Shown: positions 6,217-64,000 of the stretch, one piece after another | How positions within the stretch are numbered: position 1 is the first letter of the stretch | How the letters are laid out: the number at the start of each line of letters is the position of its first letter | Notes under the pieces: generated by a model | Database searches by the model: none | What the model was told of the DNA's origin: nothing | Seen by the model: the letters and a program-made list of their open reading frames with translations, nothing else | Made by a program: the position numbers and the translations under genes | Assembly: GCA_963789055.1 (NCBI GenBank) | Contig: CAWBJE010000002.1 | Location: 304,563 to 368,562, forward strand | Source of the DNA: an uncultured Verrucomicrobiae bacterium | Lineage (GTDB): Bacteria; Verrucomicrobiota; Verrucomicrobiia; Limisphaerales; UBA11358 | DNA: 64,000 nt | Reading direction: 5' to 3'

Positions 6217-6663
6217 TCAACCGATGGCATTCTTGAGCATCAGGAACATCCAAACCACCGTGCCGGCGGCGAACAATCCTGTCACCAGTGCGGCGATGAT
6301 CAATATGTTGTCGAGGGCGCTGATGGTAGGAGCGGCGGGAGCCGCTCTTTGAATCGCCGGAGCCGGACGGGTTTGGGCCACGGGTGCGGCAGCGGCGGCA
6401 ACAGTGGTTCGTGGCGCAGCAGCTGGAGCAGCTGCAGACAACGTCGGCGCTCTTGTTGGACTGGGCGGCGGTGTCGCACTGGGTGCGCCGGTCGGGCCGC
6501 CGGGCGGCAGCGTCGGCAGTTTAATCGTCGGCGCTGTGGAAGGTTTGGGTGGTAAATTGATCCGGACGGTCTCTTTTTTGGGCTGTACTTTGCCGGTTTC
6601 TTTTTTTACCGGAGGCACAGCACCAGCAGGTGCGCCGGGTATGTTCGAAGGAATGTCAGCCAT
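6217..6663 (-). CDS. Pro/Ala-rich protein with a C-terminal membrane anchor
   Basis: 148 aa. It has a low-complexity P/A/T-rich body and ends in the hydrophobic helix ILIIAALVTGLFAAGTVVWMFLML. Confidence 0.5.
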   Translation of the reverse strand: MADIPSNIPGAPAGAVPPVKKETGKVQPKKETVRINLPPKPSTAPTIKLPTLPPGGPTGAPSATPPPSPTRAPTLSAAAPAAAPRTTVAAAAAPVAQTRPAPAIQRAAPAAPTISALDNILIIAALVTGLFAAGTVVWMFLMLKNAIG

Positions 6664-6743
6664 AAATATTAGTGGTTCAAGATAAACGGCGGCCCGCGGC
6701 TGTCAAATGTATTTCTGGGTAAACCTGTTGACGCCAGCCGCTA

Positions 6744-8126
6744 TCAGACTTTTTCCTCGATTAATTCACGTCGGGCGCCACCGAGCAATTGTTCCACAAA
6801 ACCGGTCGAATAAACACCTCGCCGGAAATTCGGGTCCTGCATGATGGCCTGTTGGAATGACACCGTGGTTTTAATGCCGGTAATCATGTATTCGGCAAGC
6901 GCGCGGTTCATCCGGTCCATCGCTTCACGCCGGTCTTTGCCCGTGGCAATCAGTTTGCCCAGCATCGAGTCGTAGGTCGGGGGAATCGTATACCCCGCGT
7001 AGGCATGGGTATCCACGCGCACCCCGCGTCCGCCAGGTTGAAAATACATCTCAATCCGCCCCGGGCTGGGACGGAAATCATCGAACGGGTCTTCGGCATT
7101 AATGCGACATTCGATGGCATGGCCCTTGATTTGAATGTCGCTTTGCGAATGTTGCAACGGTTCGCCCATGGCCAGCAGGATTTGATAGCGTACGAGATCA
7201 ATCCCCGTGACTTCCTCGGTGACCGGATGCTCGACTTGAATCCGCTTGTTGACTTCGAGGAAATAAAAATTGCCGTGGTTGTCCACAATGAATTCAACAG
7301 TGCCGGCGTTGGTATAGTGCGCGGCTTCGGCGATTTTCACGGCCGCCTTGCCGATTCGGTCGCGCAATTTGCGGAATTTGAATTCGAGCAACGGCGACGG
7401 TGCCTCCTCAATAAGTTTCTGGTTGCGGCGTTGGACGGAGCAATCGCGTTCGCCCAGATGAATAATGCGGCCTTTGTGGTCCCCGAGAATTTGAATTTCA
7501 ATATGGTGCGGATTCTCGATGTATTTTTCGATGTAAACCCCGGAGTTGCCGAACGCTTTTTCCGCTTCATTTCGCGCCGTGTGAAAACCTTTCACCAGCG
7601 AAATATCATTGTGTGCCACGCGCATTCCGCGTCCGCCACCGCCGGCAATGGCTTTAATCATCACCGGATAACCTATGTGTTTGGCAATGGCCAAGGCATC
7701 CGGCTCTTTTTCAACGACGCCATCCGACCCTGGCGGCAAGGGCACCCCGGCCTTTTTTGCCAGCGCACGGCTGACCGCTTTGTCGGCCAGTGCCTGCATT
7801 GTGCGCGGATTGGGGCCGATAAAACGAACGTTGCAACTTTCGCAAACCTCGGCGAAATGCGCGTTCTCCGAAAGAAAACCATAGCCGGGATGAATCGCGT
7901 CCACATCCGCGACCTCCGCCGCACTGATAATGCGGTCAATGCGCAGATAACTTTCCGACGCCGCCGCTTTGCCGATGCAAATGGCCTCGTCGGCCAGTTG
8001 CACGTGCATGGAATTGGCATCCGCCTCCGAATAAACAGCTACCGTACGAATATTCAACTCTTTACAAGCGCGGATGATCCGAACGGCTATCTCGCCGCGA
8101 TTGGCCACCAGAATTTTTTCAAACAT
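6744..8126 (-). CDS. accC: Acetyl-CoA carboxylase, biotin carboxylase subunit
   Basis: N-terminus MFEKILVANRGEIAVRIIRACKELNI, ATP-grasp motif GGGGRGMRV, 460 aa. Confidence 0.97.
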   Translation of the reverse strand: MFEKILVANRGEIAVRIIRACKELNIRTVAVYSEADANSMHVQLADEAICIGKAAASESYLRIDRIISAAEVADVDAIHPGYGFLSENAHFAEVCESCNVRFIGPNPRTMQALADKAVSRALAKKAGVPLPPGSDGVVEKEPDALAIAKHIGYPVMIKAIAGGGGRGMRVAHNDISLVKGFHTARNEAEKAFGNSGVYIEKYIENPHHIEIQILGDHKGRIIHLGERDCSVQRRNQKLIEEAPSPLLEFKFRKLRDRIGKAAVKIAEAAHYTNAGTVEFIVDNHGNFYFLEVNKRIQVEHPVTEEVTGIDLVRYQILLAMGEPLQHSQSDIQIKGHAIECRINAEDPFDDFRPSPGRIEMYFQPGGRGVRVDTHAYAGYTIPPTYDSMLGKLIATGKDRREAMDRMNRALAEYMITGIKTTVSFQQAIMQDPNFRRGVYSTGFVEQLLGGARRELIEEKV

Positions 8127-10727: not shown

Positions 10728-11790
10728 TCAAAAACGCAATTTGAGCAGGCTTACTTCCAATGCCAGTGCTTCCTGCACGTTGGTGTGCAACAGCCGCTGG
10801 GTTTGTTCCAAGGTTTGTAAATTTTCCAATGCCTCCTGTGGGGTAATGCGCCGGGCAACTGTTTCCGCACCGGCGATCTCAGGGAATTTCAGCAGTTTGC
10901 CACCGGCGGAGACAGTGCGCCCGTCCTCCGCAGCAGTGCTGCGGCGGAGGGTGGACAGCCACACGTCGCGCAGCCACCATTGCACAATCAAAAGCGTCTC
11001 TGCCCGCTGGCGGCGATATTCCGCTTCAATGGCTGCGGCCAGTTCGTCCTCCCATTTTTCGCGCAAATCCTTTTCGATTTCGTCGTATTGTTGCAGCGGT
11101 GAGCACGCCGTAAGCTTTTCTTCCACGCGTGCCCGAATTTCGCCAAGCCTTTGCAGCAACGCGTCAAGCAGCCGGTAACGCCCCAGCAGACTTTTTTGTT
11201 CATTGGCCGCCAGCGCGTCAAAATGCGCAAGCCATTCCTTTTGCGCCGGGTCCAGCGGGTGACCCTCTTCGCTGAAGAAATTCAGGCGCAGACAGCGCGA
11301 CAAGATGGTTTCTAAAATCCGCTGCGGTTCGGTCGAAAGCAAAATCAGAACCGACTCGGCCGGGCGGCTCTTCCAGTGTTTTCAGGAAAGCATTGGCGGC
11401 TTGAGCGTTGAGCCGGTCTGCTCCCGCGATGATGGCCACCTTGTATTCGGCCTCGGTGGGCTTGAGTTGGATTTCGCGCATCAACTCGCGCATTTGCTCG
11501 ACGGTGACGATGCGCGATTTGGATTCGGGTCGCGCCCAATGCACGTCGGCATGGGTATCGCGGTCAATCTTTTGGCAATTCAAACAGGTGTCGCAGCAAT
11601 CGGTTGCCACGTCGTCGGTTTTGACGGCGTTCCGGCAATTCAGCGTTTTGGCCAGCGTGCGGGCTAGCAATTCCAGCTCTTCGAGCTGATCGCCGGCGAA
11701 CAGGTAGGCATGGCCGAGCCGCCCGCGGGCGAGCGAACGCTGGAGCAATTCGACGCCTTGCGTCTGTCTGGCAAAATGTTTAAAGGCCAT
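10728..11790 (-). pseudogene. holB: DNA polymerase III delta-prime subunit, split into two frames by one frameshift near 11355-11367
   Basis: The N-terminal ORF has GHAYLFAGD...ANAFLKTLEEPPG. The family-typical continuation ESVLILLSTEPQRILETILSRC is in another frame starting within CCGCCCGGCCGAG. Confidence 0.85.
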
Positions 11791-11890: not shown

Positions 11891-13224
11891 TTATTGGCCG
11901 TGGAGTTTTTTCCAATCGGCATATTGTTCGAGGCCCGTTGTGGGGAGTCGTTATACCACGAATAACCATTGCGGCGTTCTTTGGAAATTTCGTTCACGTC
12001 GTCGTGAATGCTCTTGTCCCGGTCGCCGAAAATCGGCCGGTCGGTGCCGATTTCATAATAGCGGGCCCAAATCGGCCCGTTGCCCGGCGCGGGAACAAGA
12101 TGCCGCCCTTGTCGCGGTCAAATCGAAAGCCACGTCGTAGATTTTGGTTTTTTCAAACCACGCGGCCGCGGCATTGACCGCCGCGACGATGTCCGGACCG
12201 GGATGGGGCTGTTCCATCAAAAACGTCATGAGATCCGCGCTTTCCGCTGCTGACCTGTGACGGCATCTCGTAATTGCGGGCCGAAGCGGGTTGCAGGGTC
12301 AGCGCGTCATGTTGCTGGCACCACACCGTGCGGCGGCCGTCCACAACAATCTGGGTGGCGAGCATGCACGCGATTCCGCGTTGGAGGCTGGCCGCTGCCC
12401 GTGTGCGGTATTTTTCCGGCACAAAGGCGAATTCGCTGTTCGTCCCGGAAACGTCGCGCAACAAGGTAAGCACGTTGAGCATGGCGTCGTCGTTGTAGGT
12501 GATGGCGTCGTGATAACCGCCTTGGAGCGGCCACACCTGGGGCCAGCCGCCGTTGGGATATTGCGCGGCAAAAATGTAATCCAAGCCGCGCAGAAATGCT
12601 GCGCGATAAGCGGAGAGGCTGATTGGTTCCGGCCGCGGTGATGACTTTCGCCAGGAAACGCAGTTCCGTGATCGTGGCATCATTGTCGAATGTGCCGACA
12701 TAATCCCAATGGGCATCCCGGGAAGGTCGAAATCAGCCTTGCCAAGGTACCGGGAGTTGTTGTTGGGGGCGAAGTATTCGCCCGGGGCGCGCGGATGTTG
12801 CGTCATGTTCAGATTTTTGCTCCAGCCGCCGGCAGGAGTTTGGAACGAGACGAATGATGTCTGCGATGCGCCTCGCCTCGCTTTCGCCATACCAAGCAGT
12901 CGGGTTGGTTCAACGGAATGCTTCCCACGGAACGGCCTGAAGGTGGAACCCTTGGCTGTTTGATCCCGTGCTTGCGCATTTCCGCCTGAAAAAATTCTGG
13001 TCAGCCTGCCACTGCCGGGTTGAACGTTTCAGATAATCCTTCCAGGCGGATTGTTGGGCGTGTGGCAGCGCTGCAATGCGTTCCGCAGTAAACGGCTGTG
13101 CCGGCAGATTGGTGCCGATGATTGCGGCTGACAAAGCTGGCGCGGAAACGAGGAGCAGACCGGTGCCGGCTGTAAAAAACCGGCGCAAACACAACTGAAA
13201 AGAGACACAAAGTGAACGACGCAT
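11891..13224 (-). pseudogene. Pectate lyase, PL10 (PelA/Pel-15E) family, broken by at least seven frameshifts
   Basis: A signal peptide (MRRSLCVSFQLCLRRFFTAGTGLLLVSAPALSA) is followed by family-like blocks spread over all three frames: VSFQTPAGGWSKN, VGTFDNDATITELRFLAKVI, YRAAFLRGLDYIFAAQYPNGGWPQ, ITYNDDAMLNVL, APGNGPIWARYYEIGTDRPIF and LEQYADWKKLHGQ-stop. Confidence 0.75.
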
Positions 13225-25425: not shown

Positions 25426-28185
25426 ATGAAAACGTCCCGGATGTTGATTTTAGTCGGTGTCTTGTTAACGGCTGGGAGTCTGGCCATGTCGGCGCGGGCG
25501 CAGAGCAATCTCGTTTACGCCGCTGAATATAACCAGTCAACCAATCGTTTCGGCATCATCAACCTGTTGAACGGAAATTTTACCCGGATTTCATCCCTCG
25601 GTTCGGCGTTGATCAATGACATCGCTTACTGTCCCACCAACGGAATGGTGTACGGCATTTCCAACAGCTCGGTCCTGGTAACTTTCAACAAGACTAACGG
25701 CGCCATCACCCGGGTTGCCAGTCTGAGCGCCAGCAGCATCCAATCATTGGCCTTCCGGCCGAGTGACGGTATGCTCTTCGGCGCCGCGCAGAGCAGGTTG
25801 TACTCGATCAATCCCGTCAACGGAACGGCGACGTCCATCGGGAATTACGGCAGTCCCAAAAATCTCAACAGTAAGGGACAAAACATCCGTTTTGCGCAGG
25901 ACGGCAATCTCTACTTGAGCAACACGAGTACGAACACCGACATTTACCGGATCAACACCACAAGCGGCGCGGCGACATGGATGGGTGAAGCCGTCGGTTA
26001 TCCCTATCTGATGTTGCAAAACGCGAGTTCGAACATGTACGGCGTTTACATCAATTTGGGATCTTCCACCAACCCGGCACCCAAGCTGGTGACTTTCAAT
26101 CTGAACGGCTTTGTGAACGGCGGCACCAACGCCAATGGCACGACCAACCAGATCATTCCCATCCTGGTGGGCGCCGGCACCAACTTCCCCGCCAATTTCA
26201 ATTTCTCGGGCAATGTTCCCCAGGCAGTCACTAATCTCACCGTGCCGGTGAGCGCGACCGGTCCTTCAAACCAAACGGCCGTGGTGGGAGGCAACGCGGT
26301 GTTCAGCACGACAGCTTCAGGAACCGGCCCGTACACGTATGCATGGTCGAAAAACGGCACGGCCATAAGCGGGCAAACCAATAGCAGCTTCACGTTAAAC
26401 AATGTGACCACCGCCGACGCGACCACCTACAGCGTCATCGTGGGCGGAGCCATGGGAACCGTGACCAACAGCGCGACTTTAACGGTGACCAAGGCCAATG
26501 CCACCATAACCTTGGGTAACCTGAATCAGGTTTACGACGGTACGGCCAAAGCAGCGACTGCGACCACAACCCCGAGTGGGTTGGCGGTGAACTTCACCTA
26601 CAACGGTTCAACGACAGCTCCGACCAGTGCCGGAAGTTACACTGTGGTCGGCACAATCAATGACGCGAATTACCAAGGCACCGCGACCAATACACTGGTC
26701 ATCAACAAGGCTGTGGGCTCAATCTCGCTGGGCAGCCTCAACCAGACTTACAACGGTGCAGCCAAACCGGCAACAGCTACAACTATTCCGGCCGGTTTGG
26801 CGGTGACCTTTACGTACAATGGCTCTGCCACGGTGCCGACTGCCGCTGGTGCCTACACAGTAGTGGGCACAATCAACGACGCCAATTATCAAGGCAGCGC
26901 GACTGGCTCGTTGGTCATTGAAAAAGCAGCCCTGACCATTACTGCGGCAGCTAACATCAAGACTTACGACGGCACCACCAGCGCCGCTGCTCTCCCAACG
27001 ATCAGCGGTCTGCAAGGCTCTGACATGGTTACCGGTTTGGCTGAAATCTATGACAACAAGAACGCTGGTACGGGCAAGACGCTCAGCGTCAGTGCTTACA
27101 CCGTCAATGACGGCAATAACGGCAACAACTACTTGGTCAACACAGCAACCGGCTCGGGGGTCATTAATCCAGCACCACTGACCATCACCGCCACGGCTAA
27201 TACCAAGACCTACGATGGCACCACCAGCGCTGCCGCCATTCCATCCGTCAGTGGTTTGCAGGGTTCCGACTCGGTCACCAGCCTGGCTGAAACTTACGAC
27301 TCAAAGAACGCGAGTACGGGCAAGACGCTCAGCGTCAGTGCCTACACCGTCAACGACGGCAACTCCGGCAGCAACTACACGGTCAACAGCGTTGCGAGCA
27401 CCGCCGGCGTGATTGACCCCGCGACCTTAACCATCACGGCCGTGCCCAACACCAAGACTTACGACGGGACCACCAGTGCCGCGGCCATTCCAACAGTCGG
27501 CGGTCTCCAAGGTTCTGACACCGTCACCGACCTGGCTGAAACTTATGACACCAAAACCGCTGGCGTGGGCAAGACGCTCAGCGTCAGCGCCTACACCATC
27601 CACGATGGCAACAACGGCAACAATTACACTGTCAGTACCACCGGCTCGAGCGGCAACTCCGGACTCTCTCCCCAAAACCTTGTCAATACTGCGGGTGTTA
27701 TCAATCCGGCGCCCCTGTCGGTGACAGCCAACAACAAGACTAAAATTTATGGCATGCAAAATCCGCTGCTGACGGCCAGTTACAGCGGCTTTATCAATGG
27801 GGAAAACGCCAGCGTGTTGTCATCCCCGGCGGTTTTGAGCACCACAGCAACGACCACGAGCGAACCGGGCACATACCCGATTACTGTCGAAGGTGCGGTG
27901 GCGGCCAATTACTCCATCGCCTGCGTGGACGGAACACTCCTTGTCGCTTCGGCTCCACAATTAGCCGGCACCAAAGTCAGCGTCAACGAAACCGAACAAT
28001 ATGTCGTCAGTTATCCAACGGTTTCGGGCCTGACGTATCAACTCGAATACACCACCAGTCTCATGTCCGAATGGACGCCTTTGGGCACGCCGTTTCCGGG
28101 AAACGATGGTATTGTCGCCGTAACGAACAACATCGCTCCCACTCCGCAATGCTTCTTCCGGGTACAAGTGCTGGAAGGGCAATAA
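25426..28185 (+). CDS. Large secreted protein: beta-propeller-like N-terminal region, Ig-like domain, multiple MBG/YDG repeats and a C-terminal ~70-aa module
   Basis: Signal peptide MKTSRMLILVGVLLTAGSLAMSARA. Repeated LY.IN..NG.AT.IG strands are followed by an Ig-like segment (VGGNAVFSTTASGTGPYTYAWSKNG...ATYSV). Then come two NQ.Y.G.AK..TATT repeats and three KTYDGTTSAAA...TGKTLSVSAYTVNDGN repeats. Confidence 0.85.
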   Translation: MKTSRMLILVGVLLTAGSLAMSARAQSNLVYAAEYNQSTNRFGIINLLNGNFTRISSLGSALINDIAYCPTNGMVYGISNSSVLVTFNKTNGAITRVASLSASSIQSLAFRPSDGMLFGAAQSRLYSINPVNGTATSIGNYGSPKNLNSKGQNIRFAQDGNLYLSNTSTNTDIYRINTTSGAATWMGEAVGYPYLMLQNASSNMYGVYINLGSSTNPAPKLVTFNLNGFVNGGTNANGTTNQIIPILVGAGTNFPANFNFSGNVPQAVTNLTVPVSATGPSNQTAVVGGNAVFSTTASGTGPYTYAWSKNGTAISGQTNSSFTLNNVTTADATTYSVIVGGAMGTVTNSATLTVTKANATITLGNLNQVYDGTAKAATATTTPSGLAVNFTYNGSTTAPTSAGSYTVVGTINDANYQGTATNTLVINKAVGSISLGSLNQTYNGAAKPATATTIPAGLAVTFTYNGSATVPTAAGAYTVVGTINDANYQGSATGSLVIEKAALTITAAANIKTYDGTTSAAALPTISGLQGSDMVTGLAEIYDNKNAGTGKTLSVSAYTVNDGNNGNNYLVNTATGSGVINPAPLTITATANTKTYDGTTSAAAIPSVSGLQGSDSVTSLAETYDSKNASTGKTLSVSAYTVNDGNSGSNYTVNSVASTAGVIDPATLTITAVPNTKTYDGTTSAAAIPTVGGLQGSDTVTDLAETYDTKTAGVGKTLSVSAYTIHDGNNGNNYTVSTTGSSGNSGLSPQNLVNTAGVINPAPLSVTANNKTKIYGMQNPLLTASYSGFINGENASVLSSPAVLSTTATTTSEPGTYPITVEGAVAANYSIACVDGTLLVASAPQLAGTKVSVNETEQYVVSYPTVSGLTYQLEYTTSLMSEWTPLGTPFPGNDGIVAVTNNIAPTPQCFFRVQVLEGQ
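26926..27708 (+). repeat. Three tandem coding repeats of about 246-288 bp (82-96 aa each)
   Basis: The units start at 26926, 27172 and 27421. Each encodes LTITA..N.KTYDGTTSAAA.P...GLQGSD.VT.LAE.YD.K.A..GKTLSVSAYT..DGN.G.NY.V. Confidence 0.85.
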
Positions 28186-30375: not shown

Positions 30376-30448
30376 GGGAGCGCCGGCGTCTCGCCGGCTG
30401 GCCGCATCGTAATAACCCGTCCTTTGCCAGCGGGACGCTGGCGCTCCC
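30376..30448. repeat. GC-rich imperfect palindrome (REP-like) just downstream of hypE
   Basis: The arms are GGGAGCGCCGGCGTCTCGCCGGCTGGC (30376-30402) and GCCAGCGGGACGCTGGCGCTCCC (30426-30448). Confidence 0.7.
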
Positions 30449-31510: not shown

Positions 31511-31542
31511 GACGGCCTAATGTTTTCACCTGCGATATGGTG

Positions 31543-31597
31543 GTAGGGCGGCGCTGCCGCGCCGCCGGACATGGCGGACCGGCAGGTCCGCCCTGCC
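31543..31597. repeat. GC-rich imperfect palindrome (REP-like) in the hypD|hypE spacer
   Basis: The arms are GTAGGGCGGCGCTGCCGCGCCGCC and GGCGGACCGGCAGGTCCGCCCTGCC. Confidence 0.7.
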
Positions 31598-31633
31598 AAT
31601 TTATATCAAATGATTCTCCCCTCTGCGATCCAA

Positions 31634-31661
31634 TCGTAAATCGTCATTCGTAAATCGTAAA
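31634..31661. repeat. Tandem heptamers TCGTAAA TCGTCAT TCGTAAA TCGTAAA
   Basis: Read directly from the sequence. The array abuts the hypD stop codon (31663-31665) and uses the same unit as the array at 46476-46503. Confidence 0.8.
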
Positions 31662-31662
31662 T

Positions 31663-33109: not shown

Positions 33110-35494
33110 CTAACGTATCTGGCGCAGGGCAGCAATGACTTGTCCCAGTGCTATCCCGCCGTCGTTCGGCGGCACGCGCTGATGCCAGTACGGTCGAAAA
33201 CCCTCCGCCTGCAACCGCCGCACGGTTCGTTCGGTGAGATAACGGTTCTGAAAACAGCCGCCGGAAAGCACCACTCGCTCCTGCCCGGCACGTTTGGCGA
33301 CGGCGACAATGCCTTCGGCCAGCGCGTTATGGAATTTGGCGGAGATGATACCGATGGAAACACCATTTTTGACGTTGGACAGGATCGACTCGATCATCGG
33401 GGACCAATCCAGGACAATTGCGGATTGCGGATTGCGGATTGTGGATTTGTTGACCGGAGAAGACACCGTTTCAATTGGCAATTGGCAATCGACAATCGGC
33501 AATGAATAAGCTTCATCGGTTTCGATACCATCGAGGGCAAACTCCAGTTCCATTGCGGCCTGACCCTCGAACCGGATTTTCTGACGAAGATTGACGAGTG
33601 ACGCCACGGCATCGAACAACCGACCCGCGCTCGTTGTCACTGGCGAGTTTAACTTTTTCTCCAGCATGGTTTTCAGTGCGGTCAATTCTTGTGGCGAAAA
33701 CGTCTGACGTAATTCGTGTTGCATATGCAACAAAAGGTTGTCTTGGCTGCCGGACATCTCATGGAGCAATCCGAGCGCGGAGCGGCGCGGTTCCTTGACC
33801 GCCTGGTCGCCACCCGGCAGCCGGAACGGACGCAAATGGGCAATGCGTTCGACATTTTCGGCCGTGACGAGGAAAAATTCGCCGCCCCAGACCGTGCCGT
33901 CCAAACCATAGCCGGTGCCGTCCCACGACACGCCCAAGACCGGCGGCACAATTTCATTCTCGGCCATGCACGACAGAACGTGCGCGATGTGGTGTTGGAC
34001 GCCAACGTGGCACAGACCTCCGGTCTGTGTTTTGCTCACAGGCCGGGAGGCCTGTGCCACAAATTCTTTCGCATACTTCGTCGAGAGATAATCCGGATGC
34101 AAATCGGCGGCGATGATTTGCGGTTTGGCTTCGTAAAGTTTCTGGAAATCGTCGATCACGCGGCAGAACGCGTCATAAGCCGGCTCGGTTTCCAAATCGC
34201 CAATGTGTTGGCTGATGAAAACCTGATTGCCGACGGACAAAGCAACGCAGTTTTTCAGATGCGCGCCAACGGCCAGAATTGGTTGAGGGTTGAGAGTTGA
34301 GAGTTGAGGGTTGAGCGTGATAGGTAATGGTGCGTAGCCTCTCGCTCGTCTCAACACTAATTCACGGTCGAGCATCACGCGCACAATCGAATCATCCACG
34401 TGCCGCACAATCGGGCGGTTATGGACCAGAAACACATCGGCAATGCCGCCCAATCGCTCCAGGGCTTCGTGTTCATCGGTGCAAATCGGTTCATCGCTTA
34501 AATTGCCGCTGGTGGCGACGACCGGAAAACCGAGTTCGGCCAGCAGCAAATGATGCAACGGTGTGTAGGGCAGCATTACGCCGAGATGGGGATTGTTTGG
34601 GGCAACGGAAGTTGAGGGTTGAGAGTTGAGAATTGAGCGTCGCCGGAGCAGCACGATGGGTGATTCGGGTGAGCGGAGCAGGCGCTCTTCCAAAGGCGAG
34701 ACTTCACAGACGGCTTTTATGCTTTCCAACGTCGGGAACATGAGCGCGAAGGGTTTTTCCTCGCGCTGTTTGCGCTCGCGCAAAAGTTGAACCGCCTTTT
34801 CGTTGCGCGCGTCCACCATCAGGTGAAATCCACCGAGTCCCTTCACAGCAACAATTTGACCCCGGCGAATTACCCGAGCCGCGGCGTGCAGAGCCTGGTG
34901 CCCGCCAAAGACCGCTTCGCCAGCCGGATTCCACAGTTCAAGGTGTGGCCCGCAAATCGGACAGGCATTTGGTTGCGCGTGGAAACGGCGGTCGCGCGGA
35001 TCGTTGTATTCAGTCTGGCATAGCGGACACATCGTGAACATTTTCATCGAGGTGTTCGCGCGGTCATAGGGCAGGGATTCGATGATGCTGAAACGGGGGC
35101 CGCAATTCGTGCAATTGGTGAACGGATAATGGTAACGGCGATTTTGGGGATCGAAGATTTCGCGCAGACAATCCGGACAGGTGGCAATGTCCGGCAACAC
35201 CAGCGCGGTTTTGTCGCCGCCGGTTTCGCTGGCACGGATCTCAAAGTTTTCATAGCCAACGGGGTCGAGCCATGAGGCTTCGAGGCTTTGGATGAAACTG
35301 CGCACGGGCTTTTCTGCTTCGAGACGCAGGAGAAATCGTTCGAGCCTGGCTCGCGGGCCTTCTACCTCGATGAAGACGCCCTGCGGCGAATTGTTGACCC
35401 AGCCGGTCAGACCGAGCTCGGTAGCCAGGTGATGGACAAATGGACGGAAACCGACGCCCTGCACCGCGCCCCGAACAGTAAGCTTGAGGCGCAT
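33110..35494 (-). CDS. hypF: Carbamoyltransferase HypF
   Basis: The start was set at ATG 35494 (MRLKLTVRGAVQGVGFRPFVHHLA, acylphosphatase domain). Two zinc-finger pairs are present (CPDCLREIFDPQNRRYHYPFTNCTNCGPRFSI and CPLCQTEYNDPRDRRFHAQPNACPICGP), followed by YrdC-like and Kae1-like regions. Confidence 0.93.
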   Translation of the reverse strand: MRLKLTVRGAVQGVGFRPFVHHLATELGLTGWVNNSPQGVFIEVEGPRARLERFLLRLEAEKPVRSFIQSLEASWLDPVGYENFEIRASETGGDKTALVLPDIATCPDCLREIFDPQNRRYHYPFTNCTNCGPRFSIIESLPYDRANTSMKMFTMCPLCQTEYNDPRDRRFHAQPNACPICGPHLELWNPAGEAVFGGHQALHAAARVIRRGQIVAVKGLGGFHLMVDARNEKAVQLLRERKQREEKPFALMFPTLESIKAVCEVSPLEERLLRSPESPIVLLRRRSILNSQPSTSVAPNNPHLGVMLPYTPLHHLLLAELGFPVVATSGNLSDEPICTDEHEALERLGGIADVFLVHNRPIVRHVDDSIVRVMLDRELVLRRARGYAPLPITLNPQLSTLNPQPILAVGAHLKNCVALSVGNQVFISQHIGDLETEPAYDAFCRVIDDFQKLYEAKPQIIAADLHPDYLSTKYAKEFVAQASRPVSKTQTGGLCHVGVQHHIAHVLSCMAENEIVPPVLGVSWDGTGYGLDGTVWGGEFFLVTAENVERIAHLRPFRLPGGDQAVKEPRRSALGLLHEMSGSQDNLLLHMQHELRQTFSPQELTALKTMLEKKLNSPVTTSAGRLFDAVASLVNLRQKIRFEGQAAMELEFALDGIETDEAYSLPIVDCQLPIETVSSPVNKSTIRNPQSAIVLDWSPMIESILSNVKNGVSIGIISAKFHNALAEGIVAVAKRAGQERVVLSGGCFQNRYLTERTVRRLQAEGFRPYWHQRVPPNDGGIALGQVIAALRQIR
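33420..33506. repeat. Two heptamer arrays inside hypF: (GCGGATT)x3+GTGGATT, then CAATTGG CAATTGG CAATCGA CAATCGG CAATGAA
   Basis: The arrays are at 33420-33447 and 33472-33506. On the coding strand they translate as IVDCQLPIETVSSPVNKSTIRNPQSAIVLDW. Confidence 0.8.
34281..34316. repeat. Heptamer array GGTTGAG GGTTGAG AGTTGAG AGTTGAG GGTTGAG inside hypF
   Basis: Read directly from the sequence. On the coding strand it translates as LNPQLSTLNPQP. Confidence 0.8.
34609..34637. repeat. Heptamer array AGTTGAG GGTTGAG AGTTGAG AATTGAG inside hypF
   Basis: Read directly from the sequence. On the coding strand it translates as ILNSQPSTS. Confidence 0.8.
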
Positions 35495-43571: not shown

Positions 43572-43580
43572 GCAGAGAAT

Positions 43581-43699
43581 GTCGAATTTCGAATGAGAAG
43601 TGTCGAATGCAAAATTTGGATAAATGGATTACTGGATAATTGGATTGCTCAGTCAGCCGATTGCGACCCATTTATCCACCAATCCACTCATCCAACTTC
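43581..43699. repeat. Composite short-period repeat: heptamers (GTCGAAT-like x5), then octamer arms (GGATWNNT x4 and the complementary CCANNNAT x4)
   Basis: 43581-43615 reads GTCGAAT TTCGAAT GAGAAGT GTCGAAT GCAAAAT. 43618-43649 reads GGATAAAT GGATTACT GGATAATT GGATTGCT. 43668-43699 reads CCATTTAT CCACCAAT CCACTCAT CCAACTTC. Confidence 0.8.
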
Positions 43700-46422: not shown

Positions 46423-46503
46423 ATTTTAGATTTACGATTTACGATTTACGAGGGGAATCTGAAACGAGTGGCGACTCGTAAATCTTAAATCGCCAATCGT
46501 AAA
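46423..46503. repeat. Hairpin-forming pair of heptamer arrays (ATTTACG)n / (CGTAAAT)n between smpB and rpoZ
   Basis: The left arm ATTTTAG ATTTACG ATTTACG ATTTACG is at 46423-46450. A 25-nt loop follows. The right arm TCGTAAA TCTTAAA TCGCCAA TCGTAAA is at 46476-46503. Confidence 0.8.
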
Positions 46504-46507
46504 TGAG

Positions 46508-56208: not shown

Positions 56209-56299
56209 GGATTATTGGATTGTTGGATAAATGGATAAATTTCAGCAACTGCTTTTGCCCCAATAATCCAAAAATCCAATTATCCATCAATCCATTCAT
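56209..56299. repeat. Octamer-array hairpin in the gatC|gatA spacer
   Basis: The left arm GGATTATT GGATTGTT GGATAAAT GGATAAAT is at 56209-56240. The right arm CCAATAAT CCAAAAAT CCAATTAT CCATCAAT CCATTCAT is at 56260-56299. Confidence 0.8.
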
Positions 56300-56589: not shown

Positions 56590-56611
56590 GCGCGGAAATT
56601 AAAGTCCCCAG

Positions 56612-56646
56612 CCCAAAGTTCAAAGCCCAAAGTTGAAAATTGAGGC
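56612..56646. repeat. Tandem heptamers CCCAAAG TTCAAAG CCCAAAG TTGAAAA TTGAGGC upstream of gatC
   Basis: Read directly from the sequence. Confidence 0.6.
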
Positions 56647-56691
56647 CGCCATCATTTTGCTTCTTGATACCTCGCCTTTATGGTGACCCCT

Positions 56692-57162
56692 TTATTCATT
56701 TTCACGTTTATTACTCCCTTTGTTTTTTGAAAGAATACGCAACAAACCAAACATTAAAAGCGTTCCTACAAAAAAGGCAAAAATCCACGTTAAAAATACA
56801 ACCTCATCATAGATTGTATGCATATGATTTTCAATTACCGGAGTAATAGTTGTCGCAAAACAAATTCCAATCATGATGGCAACTGTAAGGCGACTGATAC
56901 CGTTGCTTGATTTTAATATTACCTCCTGATCTTTGGTAATTTTGGATTTTTGGCTTAACAAGGCATATGCAGCGGCCACCAACCAGCCACAGGCTGTTCC
57001 TAGTCCAAAAATCATTGGGCTAAAAAGTATCGTAAAGAAAAGAATCCCTCCAATTCCCATTCTTTCATTCATAATGGGCCCCGAGAAATTCCACACTGAG
57101 AAGCCCAAACCACAGATAATAGTTGTTACCCAGAATATAGGTTTGGAAATGGTGTAGTGCAT
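56692..57162 (-). CDS. Hypothetical four-helix membrane protein in an AT-rich islet
   Basis: 156 aa with hydrophobic helices (IFWVTTIICGLGFSVW, GGILFFTILFSPMIFGLG, LTVAIMIGICFATTI, VVFLTWIFAFFVGTLLMFGLL). The composition is clearly AT-richer than the flanks. Confidence 0.55.
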   Translation of the reverse strand: MHYTISKPIFWVTTIICGLGFSVWNFSGPIMNERMGIGGILFFTILFSPMIFGLGTACGWLVAAAYALLSQKSKITKDQEVILKSSNGISRLTVAIMIGICFATTITPVIENHMHTIYDEVVFLTWIFAFFVGTLLMFGLLRILSKNKGSNKRENE

Positions 57163-57290
57163 AAGGCGGTCAATAGTATCGCGTTATTTTTCTTCCCGCC
57201 GATTCCGATACAACAAATACACCTGATGTGTCCTCGTGCCAGTGCGCTGTCGCTCTACTATCCCGGAACCGCCCACCGGCAATCGTCGGC

Positions 57291-60008: not shown

Positions 60009-60517
60009 TTTCGGTTACTTAAATTGGCGCCATTTTCAACCACGGTGTGCACGTTGTTGGAAATGGTGAGGAAGGAATCGCTTTGCCGCCACAAAAAACC
60101 TTCACCCTCCACCCGGAATTTTCCATCGCCCGTGTGCACCTCCAAACGTCCCGCCGAATTCGCCACGCCCTTGAACGTGTCATAAATGCATTCCGGCGCC
60201 AGCACCACCCATTCCAGCTTTCCGTTCAGATCGTAGGTCTCAAGCTTGAGTTGTTTGACGATGAGCAGTCCACCCGGCTGGGGCAGCGCTTCGGCGCCGG
60301 ACAAGATGGATTTGACCTGTTTTTGATTCGGCGGCTCGTAGTACTCAGTGGAAGTGAAATTGGTTGCGTGCGGGACGCTGTTTTGCTGCGCGCCCCCGTT
60401 GGGCATGGCAAAAAATAAAACTGCCGCCGCCACCGGCAGCCAACAAACAAGCGACGGGCGATGGATGGCGAAAATCGCCGTGAATCGCCTGAATGTTTTT
60501 TTACTGTCGCTGCTCAC
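60005..60517 (-). CDS. lptC: LptC-like membrane-anchored protein
   Basis: N-terminal anchor and beta-rich body. The call rests mainly on position (between kdsC and lptA, with a 4-nt overlap with lptA). Confidence 0.55.
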   Translation of the reverse strand: MSSDSKKTFRRFTAIFAIHRPSLVCWLPVAAAVLFFAMPNGGAQQNSVPHATNFTSTEYYEPPNQKQVKSILSGAEALPQPGGLLIVKQLKLETYDLNGKLEWVVLAPECIYDTFKGVANSAGRLEVHTGDGKFRVEGEGFLWRQSDSFLTISNNVHTVVENGANLSNRK

Positions 60518-60527
60518 ACGTCACTTG

Positions 60528-61100
60528 TCATTCCTGGTAATGCGCCAGGATGGCATCCCATTTATCCTGCGCTTTCAAAAGCATTTCTGCAACCTCGCGC
60601 ACCGCGCCGCGCCCGCCCGGCGCGCGCGTGACATAATGCGCCGCCGCCTTCACCTCGGGCCGCGCGTCACCCGCCGCCACGGCGAACCCCGCGCGTTTCA
60701 ACGGCCCCAAATCCACCACGTCATCGCCAACGAAGCAAACTTGGCCCCAATTTAGTTTCAGGCGGCGCAAGAGTTTTTCCACCGCGGCGGTCTTACCGAT
60801 CCGGTCGCCCTGCTGGACGAGAAAATCAATGTGCAATTCCGCCGCCCGCATCTCGGTGACCACCGACGGCCGTGCCGAGACCCAGCCCACTTTGAAACCG
60901 TTCCGGCGCAAAAAAACCATGCCCAGCCCGTCCCGGATGTTGAACCGCTTGATTTCCCTTGCCGCGCGGGAGCTTTGCGAAGGCGGGCGCCCACCGCCGA
61001 TGAACACCGAGCCGTCGGTCAACACGCCGTCCACGTCGCACAGGAATAACTTGATGCGTTTCAGGCGGGTGCGCAATTGCGGTGAAATTTTCGCAGCCAT
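60528..61100 (-). CDS. kdsC: KDO 8-phosphate phosphatase (HAD-IIIA)
   Basis: FLCDVDGVLTDG ... VCFVGDDVVDL. An unusual insert (GGRPPSQSSRAAREIK) lies in the cap region. Confidence 0.8.
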   Translation of the reverse strand: MAAKISPQLRTRLKRIKLFLCDVDGVLTDGSVFIGGGRPPSQSSRAAREIKRFNIRDGLGMVFLRRNGFKVGWVSARPSVVTEMRAAELHIDFLVQQGDRIGKTAAVEKLLRRLKLNWGQVCFVGDDVVDLGPLKRAGFAVAAGDARPEVKAAAHYVTRAPGGRGAVREVAEMLLKAQDKWDAILAHYQE

Positions 61101-61117
61101 GAGAAATCAAAAGGGAA

Positions 61118-61215
61118 AAACATCGAACACTGAACATCGAACGCTGAACATCGAACGATTTTGCGTGGCGGAAATCGTTCGGCGTTCGATGTTGGACGTT
61201 CGATGTTCGACGTTC
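61118..61215. repeat. 98-nt hairpin built from six GAACNNN heptamers and six NNNGTTC heptamers, in the kdsA|kdsC spacer
   Basis: The left arm AAACATC GAACACT GAACATC GAACGCT GAACATC GAACGAT is at 61118-61159. The right arm ATCGTTC GGCGTTC GATGTTG GACGTTC GATGTTC GACGTTC is at 61174-61215 and overlaps the kdsA stop codon. Confidence 0.85.
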
Positions 61216-62032
61216 ATCTATTTACCGCATTAAAGATTTTCAACAGAGCCCGCAGCAACGCCGGCATTTCCGCCAGCGGAATCATGTTCGGCCCGTCGCT
61301 TAACGCCCGTTCAGGGTGTGGATGGGTTTCGACGAACAATCCGTTCGCGCCCGCGGCCAGCGCCGCGCGGGCCAGCACCGGCGCAAATTCGCGCTGGCCG
61401 CTGGATTTGTCGCCGCCGCCGCCGGGCAGTTGCACCGAGTGGGTCGCGTCGAACACCACCGGGAACCCGGATGATTTCATGATGGGAATCGAGCGCATGT
61501 CGGCCACGAGATTGTTGTAGCCGAACGTTGTGCCGCGCTCGGTGAGCAGGATTCTTTTCGCCCCGGCGCGCCGGGCTTTTTCGGCTGCCTGCGCCATTTC
61601 GGTCGGCGACAGGAACTGGCCTTTTTTCAGATTGATGATGCGGCCCGTGGTGGCGGCAGCTTCAATCAAATCCGTCTGGCGGCAGAGAAACGCGGGAATT
61701 TGCAGAATATCCACGACTTCACCCGCGATGACGGCCTGCATCTCGGTATGCACATCGGTCAGCACCGGCACGCCGAATTCGGCGCGGACCTTGCCCAGCA
61801 CGCGCAAACCTTCCTCGAGACCCGGCCCGCGAAAGGATTTGGCCGACGTGCGGTTGGCCTTGTCGAAACTGGCTTTGAAGATGAGGAAGACGCCGAGCTG
61901 GGCGCAGGTTTTCTTGAGTGCGCCGGCGACCTGCAGGCACAACTTTTCGCTTTCAATCACGCACGGTCCGGCAATCAAAAACAGCCGGCGGGGTGAATTA
62001 AGATTTTTCCAGATGGCGGCGTCGTTGAACAC
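61214..62032 (-). CDS. kdsA: 3-deoxy-8-phosphooctulonate (KDO-8-P) synthase
   Basis: [11 protein letters not shown]...[12 protein letters not shown]...VLTDVH...[14 protein letters not shown]...[12 protein letters not shown]. Confidence 0.93.
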
Positions 62033-62173
62033 GCGGAAGTTTTAACAGCGAACCGGGGAAAAGTAAATGCGGCTATTGAACCTGATGGACACGGATTTAT
62101 TTTGGTGGGGCGAGCGCTTGTCGCGCCGTAGCCGGGCGAAGGCTGATCCCCGCGAGCCGAAAGTCTTTTGCAC

Positions 62174-62346
62174 CGTAGCGGCGAGTCGGCAGACCGCCGC
62201 TGACCGAACACAAAATGGCGGCGCTCTGTGGCGTAGTGGCTTTCGGGAGAAAGCCGCAAATTGAAAAATGACGTAGCGGCGAGTCGGCAGAAAGCCGTCG
62301 TTTGGAAAAAGAGAAATTTGCGGCGCTCTGCCGAGACGCCGCTACG
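62174..62346. repeat. Two tandem GC-rich REP-like units
   Basis: CGTAGCGGCGAGTCGGCAGA occurs at 62174-62193 and again at 62272-62291. Each copy is followed by an inverted partner (GGCGGCGCTCTGTGGCGTAG near 62217, and GCGGCGCTCTGCCGAGACGCCGCTACG at 62320-62346). Confidence 0.7.
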
Positions 62347-62351
62347 CCCGC

Positions 62352-63512
62352 TTAATAAACCAAGACCAGGACAGCAGCTTGCTGCGCCGATTTCACCACG
62401 TCCTCAAACTTCCGGTCAGCCGTGACAGGCGTTTTGAGCTTGGCAGAAACCGCCGGAACGGATTCGAGGAAGCTCAACAGAAAACTGCTCTTGACGGCGT
62501 AATTCACATTCTCCGGCAACGCCCCGCTCGCCGCCAGCGCCGCCGATGCATTCAGCTTGGCCGACACGATGCCGATGACGTTGCCATGTTCATCCACCAG
62601 CGCCCCGCCCGAATTGCCCGGCTGCACCGGCACGCTGATTTGAAAATAGCGCGGGTCATCCCCCGCGCCGGACAGCGACGCGATTTCCCCTTTGGCCAGC
62701 TTGGGCGAGAAACCTTGCATGCCGATATTGGGAAAACCGATGGTCGCCACCGTGCCGCCAAGATTCACCGTGCGACTGGCAATAATTGGCAGCGATGCAA
62801 ACCGCCCGACCGCCTTCAACAAAGCCAGATCATTGGCCGCATCCACCTGAACCACTTTGGCGTCAATCAAGCCCGCGCTCGTGAGCAAACGAACCTTCGT
62901 CGCATCCTTGACCACATGATAGTTTGAAATCAAATAACCATCGTCCGTGATGAAAAAGCCCGTGCCGCTGGCAAATGGATTTTCGGACATAGAATTGTCA
63001 GAATCCGATTCTTTGCGCGGTTTGAACTCACGAGCTAATTGTTGCGCCTCGGCAATTTGTTCTGGCGACATTTTTTGCTCAACCATTTCACGAGCAGTTT
63101 TTGCCGCCTTAAAACCTTGAGCGGATGAAAGGTTAAGCCACTTGTGGGCTTGCAGGTAGTCTTGACTTACTCCAACACCAAGAAAATAGAACATTCCAAG
63201 TGCGAATTGGGCTGTGGCCCGACCTTTTTCGGCAGCTCTACGATACCATTTTGAAGCTTCTGTCGCATCTTTAATAACGCCAGCCCCATTTGCGTAAAGA
63301 ATGCCAAGTTTATATTCAGATTCTGAATCTCCTTTTTGTGCTTTTGCTTTAATTTCTTCAATTGCTTCGGCGGTGACATTGTTGAAAAAATTAGTAATTG
63401 TTTCTTCAGTATCTGGTATCACACTAATTTTATTTGTTTGCGCAATAACGGTCTGACCGGCAGCCACACCCAGCATCAAAAGAATAATGCAAACCAAGAA
63501 AACCTGTTTCAT
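62352..63512 (-). CDS. Secreted Sel1-repeat protein fused to a trypsin-like (S1C/DegP-type) serine protease domain
   Basis: Signal peptide. Sel1 repeats (YKLGILYANGAGVIKDATEASKWYRRAAEKG, AQFALGMFYFLGVGVSQDYLQAHKWL). Protease blocks GTGFFITDDGYLISNYHVV, DLALLK and GNSGGALVDEHGNVIGI. Confidence 0.85.
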   Translation of the reverse strand: MKQVFLVCIILLMLGVAAGQTVIAQTNKISVIPDTEETITNFFNNVTAEAIEEIKAKAQKGDSESEYKLGILYANGAGVIKDATEASKWYRRAAEKGRATAQFALGMFYFLGVGVSQDYLQAHKWLNLSSAQGFKAAKTAREMVEQKMSPEQIAEAQQLAREFKPRKESDSDNSMSENPFASGTGFFITDDGYLISNYHVVKDATKVRLLTSAGLIDAKVVQVDAANDLALLKAVGRFASLPIIASRTVNLGGTVATIGFPNIGMQGFSPKLAKGEIASLSGAGDDPRYFQISVPVQPGNSGGALVDEHGNVIGIVSAKLNASAALAASGALPENVNYAVKSSFLLSFLESVPAVSAKLKTPVTADRKFEDVVKSAQQAAVLVLVY

Positions 63513-63521
63513 AACGGCAGA

Positions 63522-64000
63522 TTACTTGGTTTCAATCGGCTGGCAAGTTGTCGCTGGCTCAAGCTCTTGAAGAAATTTATCCAGCCCATCTTCCTTTTCC
63601 GAAAAAACCTTTGCCATATGAAATGATGCACCTCCATCGCGTATTCGTTTTCGCGCGTGTTCGACTTGAGTTGCCCAATGGCCATCCAGCAGCACATACT
63701 CGCAATAGGCAACGGCCACAATAGCATGAGAAACATCCATTGCGTGATTTCTGCGATTTTTACCAATCTGGAGCCCTCTGTCCTTAATGAATGAGCCTAG
63801 CAGTTCGCGAGCGATGAAGCGCGTTCCAAATTTGTTCGTGGCACCCTTTGGAATCCGATTGACTGCCGAATAGAATTCAGGATTGTTGCAATAATCCTGC
63901 CAACGAGACTCGATCCAATTGATGATCAAATCTGCAATATCATCAAATGTAACTCCCGTTGATGCGGCGAGAGCAAAAAGTTTTGGTGATCGCAAAGGGT
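63522..64000 (-). CDS. Hypothetical protein; its 5' end probably lies beyond the window edge
   Basis: The frame is open to the last bases of the window (the track starts it at a TTG at 63995). The stop is 10 nt upstream of the protease start. No motif recognised, and the region is AT-richer. Confidence 0.45.
   Translation of the reverse strand, partial: PLRSPKLFALAASTGVTFDDIADLIINWIESRWQDYCNNPEFYSAVNRIPKGATNKFGTRFIARELLGSFIKDRGLQIGKNRRNHAMDVSHAIVAVAYCEYVLLDGHWATQVEHARKRIRDGGASFHMAKVFSEKEDGLDKFLQELEPATTCQPIETK

Follow-up and report, generated by a model that had tools for sequence, protein, structure and literature searches.

Inverted heptanucleotide arrays at the kdsA-kdsC junction of an uncultured Verrucomicrobiae bacterium and its relatives

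In the genome of an uncultured Verrucomicrobiae bacterium (GenBank assembly GCA_963789055.1), the spacer between kdsA (3-deoxy-8-phosphooctulonate synthase) and kdsC (KDO 8-phosphate phosphatase) is filled by a 98-nt, 7-nt-periodic, imperfect hairpin. This raises the question of whether the structure is a device dedicated to kdsC translation, as proposed in a preliminary description of this DNA, or one representative of something more general. The window analyzed here is the whole 64,000-nt stretch of contig CAWBJE010000002.1 (positions 304,563 to 368,562), and coordinates given without a locus name refer to it. With somewhat better than even confidence, we favor the second answer, i.e., that the hairpin belongs to a lineage-wide class of inverted short-tandem-repeat arrays, which would be born by slippage and template switching. 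Each member is built from an imperfect unit, usually of 7 nt and sometimes of 6, 8, or 10 nt, whose two convergent blocks together make up a long bulged palindrome. The arrays are located directly behind stop codons and shortly ahead of start codons where genes are co-directional, or else form in-frame parts of protein loops. As judged from alignments, their arms stay complementary through paired changes, and the family present at a junction differs even between near-identical strains. The best-supported reading is, thus, that the architecture is conserved while the sequence is free, and that the elements are tolerated where stop codon, start codon, and reading frame stay intact.

The 98-nt hairpin and its fold

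The 98-nt hairpin with six facing heptamers per arm is present inside the kdsA-kdsC junction as first described, with the minus strand being the mRNA sense. Its coordinates, and those of the other features discussed below, are collected in Table 1. On the plus strand, the lower-numbered arm reads AAACATC GAACACT GAACATC GAACGCT GAACATC GAACGAT, the loop is TTTGCGTGGCGGAA, and the higher-numbered arm reads ATCGTTC GGCGTTC GATGTTG GACGTTC GATGTTC GACGTTC. The GAAC and GTTC tetrads, previously called invariant, are found in five of the six units of each arm, the exceptions being one AAAC and one GTTG. The loop is indeed 14 nt long, but the string quoted for it was one base off, and the arm ends close upstream of the kdsC ATG (61098-61100), but at a distance of 17 nt instead of 18. 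As pairing of GATTT with AAATC extends into the loop, only about 8-10 nt of it are open. The overlap with the kdsA stop codon was described correctly: this TGA (TCA on the plus strand, 61214-61216) has its last two bases inside the outermost unit of the hairpin.

Tandem Repeats Finder (TRF) delimited period-7 arrays at 61119-61156 (5.4 copies) and 61176-61215 (5.7 copies), as well as a period of 14 with 96% matches, the period-7/14 arrays together spanning 61119-61157 and 61176-61215. An inverted-repeat search returned arms of 52 nt, 10 nt apart and 73% complementary, with 82-84% in registers slipped by 7 or 14 nt. Folding against shuffled controls, the check suggested in the preliminary description, gave -53.0 kcal/mol for the minus (mRNA) strand versus -34.6 ± 3.8 kcal/mol for the shuffles (z = -4.81, 0/200), a stability far beyond chance. 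The plus strand reached -49.1 kcal/mol (z = -3.27), and folding with DNA parameters gave -31.6 kcal/mol (z = -5.5), partly in a register slipped by 7 nt. A stem scan of the window found seven long imperfect hairpins, four to five of them periodic, versus 0, 2, and 1 in three Markov shuffles. At the gathering threshold, the only Rfam match in the whole window was a tRNA, and a permissive search around the hairpin returned only sub-threshold matches resembling microRNA precursors (at most 25.8 bits). A known RNA family was, therefore, rejected as the identity of the element.

The minus-strand gene order is kdsA-kdsC-ORF (open reading frame) in the lptC position-lptA-lptB, a verrucomicrobial cluster recognized by profile matches. 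Judging from its KdsA relatives, the window belongs to Verrucomicrobiota of the Limisphaerales/Pedosphaera type. A/U-rich leaders of the type aatttcc ATG, without a Shine-Dalgarno sequence, precede many genes of the window, and the leader at 61101-61117 is therefore regarded as the usual start context of the lineage and not as something peculiar to the hairpin. Element-free kdsA-kdsC junctions of some relatives (L140) carry GAGG.

Unit families at the junction in relatives

The kdsA-kdsC junction was recovered from 78 loci (L numbers), yielding 71 unique sequences, in which no fewer than five unrelated unit families are represented. The family of the window, T1 with the unit (G/C)AACATY, was found in 25 unique junctions, T2 (GTGACNN/NNGTCAC) in 12, T3 (GTCGAGG/CCTCGAC) in five, T4 (GGATGGA/TCCATCC) in five, and T5 (CCAAGCW/TTGGAGC, with T1 remnants) in four, while four others are composites of a T2 left arm and T3. 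Eight junctions hold no element, the kdsA stop abutting or overlapping the kdsC start, and the last eight were unclear or long. Only in 19 of the 71 cases does the type agree with that of the nearest neighbor by KdsC sequence, though this neighbor is often 92-95% identical. The closest relative, L081 (KdsC 95% identical), is collinear with window positions 62069-55887 at a DNA identity of 85-92%. It has a GTGAC-type (T2) hairpin at kdsA-kdsC and the GAACATC family (T1) at gatC-gatA, where the window has an 8-mer family. Elsewhere, the gatC-gatA junction is empty (L112) or holds a 10-mer family (L134 and L136). In a comparison of filled and empty junctions, the hairpin takes the place of a short native spacer, and some kdsA-kdsC copies have lost one arm (L097, L116/117, and L150).

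The types also differ in how they are joined to the flanking genes. In T1 and T2, the kdsA stop belongs to the first unit (aTGAACA in all T1 relatives). In loci with T3 only, the kdsC ATG overlaps the kdsA TGA (TGATG), and the whole hairpin is predicted to be translated in frame to form the N-terminus of KdsC. In T2, the kdsC frame stays open through the right arm, starting from either a left-arm GTG or an ATG of the loop. On the evidence of these reading frames, the hairpin lies inside the kdsC coding sequence in T3 and probably also in T2. The distance from the kdsA stop to KdsC residue 11 is constant within each type, amounting to 143-146 nt in T1, 83 nt in T2, and 72 nt in T3. Within T1, the sub-lineages do not conserve the loop sequence and keep the U-rich tail. 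The same 22-nt insert (GCCGGCTCGCGATTTATCGGAG) is nested inside the T1 right arm of L084, L094-L096, L106, L119, and L125.

For an analysis of arm co-variation, 21 T1 junction copies, including that of the window, were used. In the proper register, 95.1% of the cells are paired, compared with only 25-40% in slid registers, and two-sided changes number 37 versus 18.7 ± 2.7 in shuffles (0/500). Unit by unit, a change of GAAC to CAAC is accompanied by one of GTTC to GTTG (SAAC/GTTS). Relatives of the same unit family, thus, keep the hairpin by compensatory changes. Of the earlier expectation that a functional element should be present and constrained in close relatives, the part concerning the architecture holds, whereas the sequence itself is not kept. 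On the sense strand of T1, G·U pairs (91-107) stand against A·C pairs (74-86), but across all families no sense-strand excess of G·U over A·C was found (208 versus 276), and the GTGAC families show the reverse (A·C > G·U). The mark that selection on a sense-strand RNA helix should leave is missing, and the result fits, without proving it, a palindrome kept on duplex DNA.

These data bear directly on the possibility that the hairpin is a dedicated cis-regulatory RNA, whose stem would be selected purely for its structure and would set the expression of kdsC and the downstream lpt genes by gating ribosome access or re-initiation, by offering a processing site, or by protecting against 3' exonucleases in the manner of intercistronic repetitive extragenic palindromic sequences (REPs). 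We consider it possible but unlikely. It would account for the strong fold of the sense strand, slightly better than that of the antisense, for the compensatory changes in T1, for the presence of some hairpin at about 80% of the related junctions despite their differing families, for the constant bridging of stop and start by the stem, and for the terminator-like T8-9 runs that follow GTGAC-type copies on phage contigs (see below). Against it speak the G·U result and the coding overlap (T3, probably also T2), followed by the eight junctions without a hairpin, the one-armed copies, the absence of an Rfam match, and the in-frame members of the class in hypF, a context in which an mRNA regulator is hard to rationalize. 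Hence, what stands of the proposed kdsC-translation element is a real and stable structure on the sense strand, reaching from the kdsA stop to the kdsC start. The same observations and the unrelated GTGAC hairpin of L081 speak against a dedicated device, and a role dedicated to the regulation of kdsC, such as specific on/off control, is not supported.

The class in the window, in hypF, and on viral contigs

Based on TRF and the stem scan, the window contains about five periodic hairpins, including the one at kdsA-kdsC, and at least seven single arrays, with differing units (Table 1; gene identities come from profile scans of about 20 ORFs). Members of the class occur at the kdsA-kdsC, gatC-gatA, DUF1015-CDF (cation diffusion facilitator), hypD-hypE, and kdsC-lptC junctions. 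This bears out the earlier guess that other operon junctions of this genome would carry arrays of different heptamers. The window holds no second GAACATC array and no other copy within three mismatches of the 14-mer. At kdsC-lptC, relatives possess a complete GTGAC hairpin where the window retains a three-unit remnant.

Table 1. Coordinates of the kdsA-kdsC hairpin, its flanking genes, and the other periodic elements of the window
Feature	Position	Strand	Evidence
Whole periodic hairpin, T1 (GAACATC family)	61118..61215	-	Sequence, TRF (period 7/14), inverted repeat, RNA and DNA folds
5' arm (mRNA sense): GAACGTC GAACATC GAACGTC CAACATC GAACGCC GAACGAT	61174..61215	-	Sequence, TRF
Loop (mRNA sense) TTCCGCCACGCAAA; ends still pair	61160..61173	-	Sequence, RNA fold
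3' arm (mRNA sense): ATCGTTC GATGTTC AGCGTTC GATGTTC AGTGTTC GATGTTT	61118..61159	-	Sequence, TRF; pairs with 5' arm
U-rich leader without Shine-Dalgarno, TTCCCTTTTGATTTCTC, from stem to kdsC ATG	61101..61117	-	Sequence
kdsA	61214..62032	-	NCBIfam NF003543, 407 bits
kdsC	60528..61100	-	NCBIfam TIGR01670, 117 bits, above cutoff
8-nt-periodic hairpin TGGATNNN / NNNATCCA, fills the gatC-gatA junction	56209..56294	-	
8-nt-periodic hairpin (43613-43698) and GAATGTC array (43577-43609), fill the DUF1015-CDF transporter junction	43577..43698	-	
ATTTACG / CGTAAAT hairpin, ends about 7 nt upstream of smpB start	46423..46504	-	
87-nt ATTGCGG / CAATNGG hairpin (29 codons) within the hypF reading frame	33417..33503	-	
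GGTTGAG x5 array, translated in hypF (TLNPQLSTLNPQP)	34281..34315; second copy 34610-34637	-	
AATCGTA x4.4 array abutting hypD stop, hypD-hypE junction	31632..31662	-	TRF
AGCCCAAAGTTCAA x2 array, period 7/14, 20 nt upstream of gatC start	56610..56638	-	TRF
GTGACNN three-unit remnant (AATGACA AGTGACG TGTGAGC) over kdsC stop and GTG start of next ORF (lptC position)	60513..60533	-	

Within hypF, the site of the 87-nt hairpin corresponds to a 20-residue gap in the solved HypF of Caldanaerobacter (3vth), and the two GGTTGAG arrays correspond to smaller gaps. Among 18 relatives of 76-82% identity, HypF ranges from 773 to 912 aa in length, and the hairpin site is empty in five and filled with various inserts in the rest; IRNPQSA in HypF is the translation of a CCGCAAT array. 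According to these alignments, the hypF copies are in-frame insertions polymorphic among relatives. In-frame insertions into the HypF proteins of this clade, which are about 75% identical, concentrate at no fewer than six hypervariable hot spots (alignment of relatives P0001-P0116), and an insert of about 54 residues (VRPHPGPLPQERENHPP...GERGRVRA) is found in 7 of the 18 relatives. At 34007-34060, hypF contains an in-frame palindrome with 15-nt arms (GTGGCACAGACCTCC ... GGAGGCCTGTGCCAC), opposite which the solved homologue has a 14-residue gap (AQASRPVSKTQTGG), and a similar palindrome lies near position 2480 of L002.

Single families are found at more than one site. The GTGAC element is homologous over its full length, loop included, at kdsA-kdsC and kdsC-lptC, and T1 occurs in relatives at kdsA-kdsC, gatC-gatA, and at least one further site, with the loop-proximal AACGCC unit common to all. 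Between the kdsA-kdsC and gatC-gatA sites, T1 identity is 62-79%, compared with 72-90% within one site. Recent copying of T1 is, thus, not demonstrated, and a recent transposition between these two junctions was not upheld, these identities being indecisive. The density of period-7 arrays is 42 per 100 kb in verrucomicrobial loci versus 4.5 in loci of other phyla, a roughly 9-fold difference that is inflated by junction ascertainment (the window alone is about 4-fold denser). Periodic hairpins were present in the verrucomicrobial loci L001-L003, L005, and L010, and among the loci of other phyla (about 500 kb) only in L013, L041, L053, and L072. L013, from a Nitrospiraceae metagenome-assembled genome, carries two long hairpins with 9-nt-periodic arms (GGTTTATCT / AGATAAACC; 6613-6755 and 7478-7554), which extends the phenomenon beyond Verrucomicrobia and beyond period 7.

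The same design is found on viral contigs of IMG/VR. Inverted arrays of period 7 were counted in 13 stretches for GTGAC, eight for GAGTC, and 26 for GCAGT, whereas GCAGT at periods of 6 and 8 gave two stretches and one, respectively; the chance expectation per inverted pattern is, by our own estimate, about 0.003. Inverted arrays of arbitrary 5-mers are, therefore, far more common there at period 7 than at 6 or 8. A control with direct arrangement was left unused, as it is confounded by long uninterrupted arrays, which match too. One viral contig of 22.6 kb (L167) has three GTGAC hairpins (6804-6868, 10766-10842, and 13095-13169), each placed after a stop codon and between co-directional ORFs, two of the three being followed by T8-9, GGAG, and a start codon. 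Periodic GTGACNN hairpins, several with a terminator-like T8-9 tail, were also noted on contigs L166, L171, and L173.

It is against this dispersal that a non-autonomous mobile element, resembling a miniature inverted-repeat transposable element (MITE) or a REP doublet forming a hairpin (REPIN), has to be considered. The heptamers would then be sites for a transposase or recombinase encoded elsewhere, which would copy the hairpin into junctions and preferentially into existing hairpins. The discrete, length-conserved families are in line with such a process, as are the full-length GTGAC homology at two junctions, the three sites of T1, the three GTGAC copies on a single viral contig, and the composites (T3 after a retained T2 left arm, T1 remnants in T5, and the 22-nt insert in T1 right arms). 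Nevertheless, no target-site duplication was found when filled and empty sites were compared (L140, L151, and L005 versus T1; L112 versus the gatC-gatA copies), and the likeness between sites is no higher than expected for low-complexity arms. Furthermore, since arbitrary 5-mers form such hairpins on viral contigs, very many cognate enzymes would be needed, which favors a sequence-independent process. Mainly the missing duplications and the arbitrary units make a transposase-driven MITE doubtful, and we assign it a low probability.

A bolder idea, to which we also give little credence, is that a sequence-independent but structure-directed process working in 7-nt steps repeatedly rewrites operon junctions in this lineage and its phages, and that its products are portable cassettes under diversifying selection. 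The process might be a template-switching mode of a polymerase or a hairpin-targeting enzyme. The left arm of such a cassette would provide the stop codon, the stem would insulate, and the right arm would be open or bear the ATG. The multi-allelic polymorphism, with at least five families at kdsA-kdsC among strains with KdsC at least 92% identical, would then reflect diversifying or frequency-dependent selection.

That the hairpin and its U-rich tract form an intrinsic terminator or attenuator halting part of kdsA-kdsC transcription is very improbable and was rejected: UUUUUCCCUUUU follows the stem in the mRNA sense, T1 relatives keep this tail, and phage-contig hairpins of the same design end in T8-9, but the consensus terminator scan of the minus strand did not flag the hairpin and T2-T5 lack a U tract at this junction, which together weigh against it, as do the A/U-rich stem base (GAACAU/AUGUUU, its first U residues being paired in the consensus structure), the nature of the U-rich stretch as the usual start-codon leader of the genome, and the lack of a promoter-like site for the downstream kdsC and lpt genes in a consensus scan.

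Proposed origin and relation to known repeats

Returning to the favored reading, in which the hairpin belongs to a class of inverted arrays arising by slippage and template switching, it is at the DNA level that the palindrome would arise and its symmetry be maintained. The 7-nt unit would be multiplied by replication slippage, either arm could be corrected to match its partner by intrastrand template switching between the two, and copies would spread to other junctions. Selection would mainly purge copies harmful to the flanking genes, whereby the stop codon, the start codon, and the reading frame are kept. On the polycistronic mRNA, a hairpin of about -50 kcal/mol would bring the kdsA stop and the kdsC start within about 20 nt of each other across the stem base, which a ribosome terminating on kdsA would open. 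The likely net effect, according to this model, is that the coupling of the cistrons is preserved, perhaps with some stabilization or insulation of the mRNA.

Several observations weigh against this reading. The near-fixed length within each family implies that ongoing slippage is rare and makes the elements look more like discrete units. The occupancy of about 80% by five families at kdsA-kdsC could reflect selection for having a hairpin there, and the co-variation of the arms could result from selection on RNA instead of templated correction. Moreover, the dispersal of the families, as far as homology reveals it, points to copying and not to local birth alone.

Among the simple repeats with long units, those of heptanucleotides are reported to be the most over-represented in prokaryotes (PMC4679880, PMC4692102). 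In Xanthomonas, about 186 GGGAATC repeats, preferentially of four units, lie mostly between aligned ORFs, and 70-75 convergent inverted pairs per genome have stem-loop potential, their function being unresolved (Rehm et al. 2015, PMC4692102). The elements described here share with them the 7-nt unit, the few units per block, and the location no farther than 50 bp from a stop or start codon, with the stop sometimes overlapped. However, Xanthomonas has one G-rich family per genome, stable between two species and proposed to form G-quadruplexes, whereas in our case the units are not G-rich (GAACATC/GATGTTC is without the G-tracts of the Xanthomonas and Nostoc repeats), many unrelated families coexist, the family at a junction changes between near-identical strains, and copies also occur within translated reading frames.

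Heptamers, TAACTGA among them, are concentrated directly ahead of start codons in Beggiatoaceae (PMC4679880) and Nostoc (bioRxiv 10.1101/2022.06.06.494920), and families of four to five tandem heptamers are known from Geobacter (PMC2700814). These and the cyanobacterial short tandemly repeated repetitive (STRR) sequences, which are dispersed in the genome, are likewise tandem, near start codons, and without an accepted function. Nearly all repeats of the STRR/TAACTGA type are, however, direct and built from a single fixed unit or a few of them, and only a single inverted case was present among the 170 heptamer sets of MacGregor, whereas inverted pairing dominates here. The kdsA-kdsC element shows the features of a heptanucleotide simple sequence repeat or STRR, i.e., at least three tandem 7-nt units in convergent blocks between aligned ORFs, with the stop overlapped.

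An imperfect extragenic palindrome, often intercistronic, is also what characterizes REPs, bacterial interspersed mosaic elements (BIMEs), and REPINs, and intercistronic REPs can stabilize the upstream mRNA. REPs measure 20-40 nt, exist in near-identical copies that share a conserved head (GTAG or CGTC), and are associated with a RAYT gene (PMC3733652). In contrast, the kdsA-kdsC hairpin has periodic arms, lacks such a head, and is without a near-identical counterpart in the window. Non-periodic, G+C-rich hairpins are present at 62272-62346, 31541-31598, and 30376-30448, as well as at 2163-2243 of L089 and 2076-2146 of L094; those at 62272, 31541, and in L089 and L094 start with (C)GTAG(C/G)GGCG and resemble GTAG-tagged REPs. 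One of the GTAG-type hairpins lies just upstream of kdsA and another between the AATCGTA array and hypE.

Rickettsia palindromic elements (RPEs), which form defined sequence families of about 100-150 nt and have no tandem-repeat arms, enter ORFs in frame. They are listed among the palindromic repeats (PMC3733652). Members of our class similarly enter protein loops in frame with the gene intact (hypF and the kdsC N-terminus of T3), but the kdsA-kdsC copy of the window is intergenic. The mycobacterial interspersed repetitive units (MIRUs), direct tandem units of 46-101 nt, lie between the cistrons of operons, where they overlap the upstream stop and the downstream start with the coupling kept. 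The position over stop and start is, thus, the same, but MIRUs are not palindromes. An integron attC site was rejected: ATCCAAC/GTTGGAT of relatives fits RYYYAAC/GTTRRRY, while ATCGAAC/GTTCGAT of the window does not, and the match in relatives was judged a coincidence, the flanks being a conserved housekeeping operon. Our literature search found no paper on inverted heptamer hairpins in Verrucomicrobia. Our verdict is that the kdsA-kdsC hairpin is a variant of a known, functionally unresolved class of repeats.

Neither the preference for 7 nt nor the function of prokaryotic heptanucleotide repeats has been explained, and in this respect the kdsA-kdsC junction provides a series of natural alleles: among closely related strains, a single operon junction, conserved and essential, is either empty or occupied by at least five families, translated or not. 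It makes testable both the effect of a stop-to-start hairpin on expression and the birth, symmetry, and replacement of palindromic arrays. There is also a consequence for the annotation of these genomes, as what looks at such sites like a gene start, a C-terminus, or a protein insertion has often been produced by the repeats.

Further differences from relatives were noted around the operon. At about 60955-60990, kdsC has a 30-nt in-frame insertion (GRPPSQSSRAA) common to the window and L081, which is missing from L082 and others. Just upstream of kdsA, the homology between L081 (1-3075) and the window (62069-64000) ends, and the neighborhoods differ beyond this point. At 56592-57273, the window has about 680 nt in place of an 85-nt spacer in the collinear L081, which by this comparison is probably an insertion; the segment contains an ORF for a 156-aa membrane-like protein (56692-57162) with a low G+C content at third codon positions (0.37) and no Pfam match. 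Finally, a 249-nt tandem repeat (2.9 copies, 76% identity) at 26925-27634, inside a 919-aa ORF (25426-28185), probably represents a repeated protein domain.

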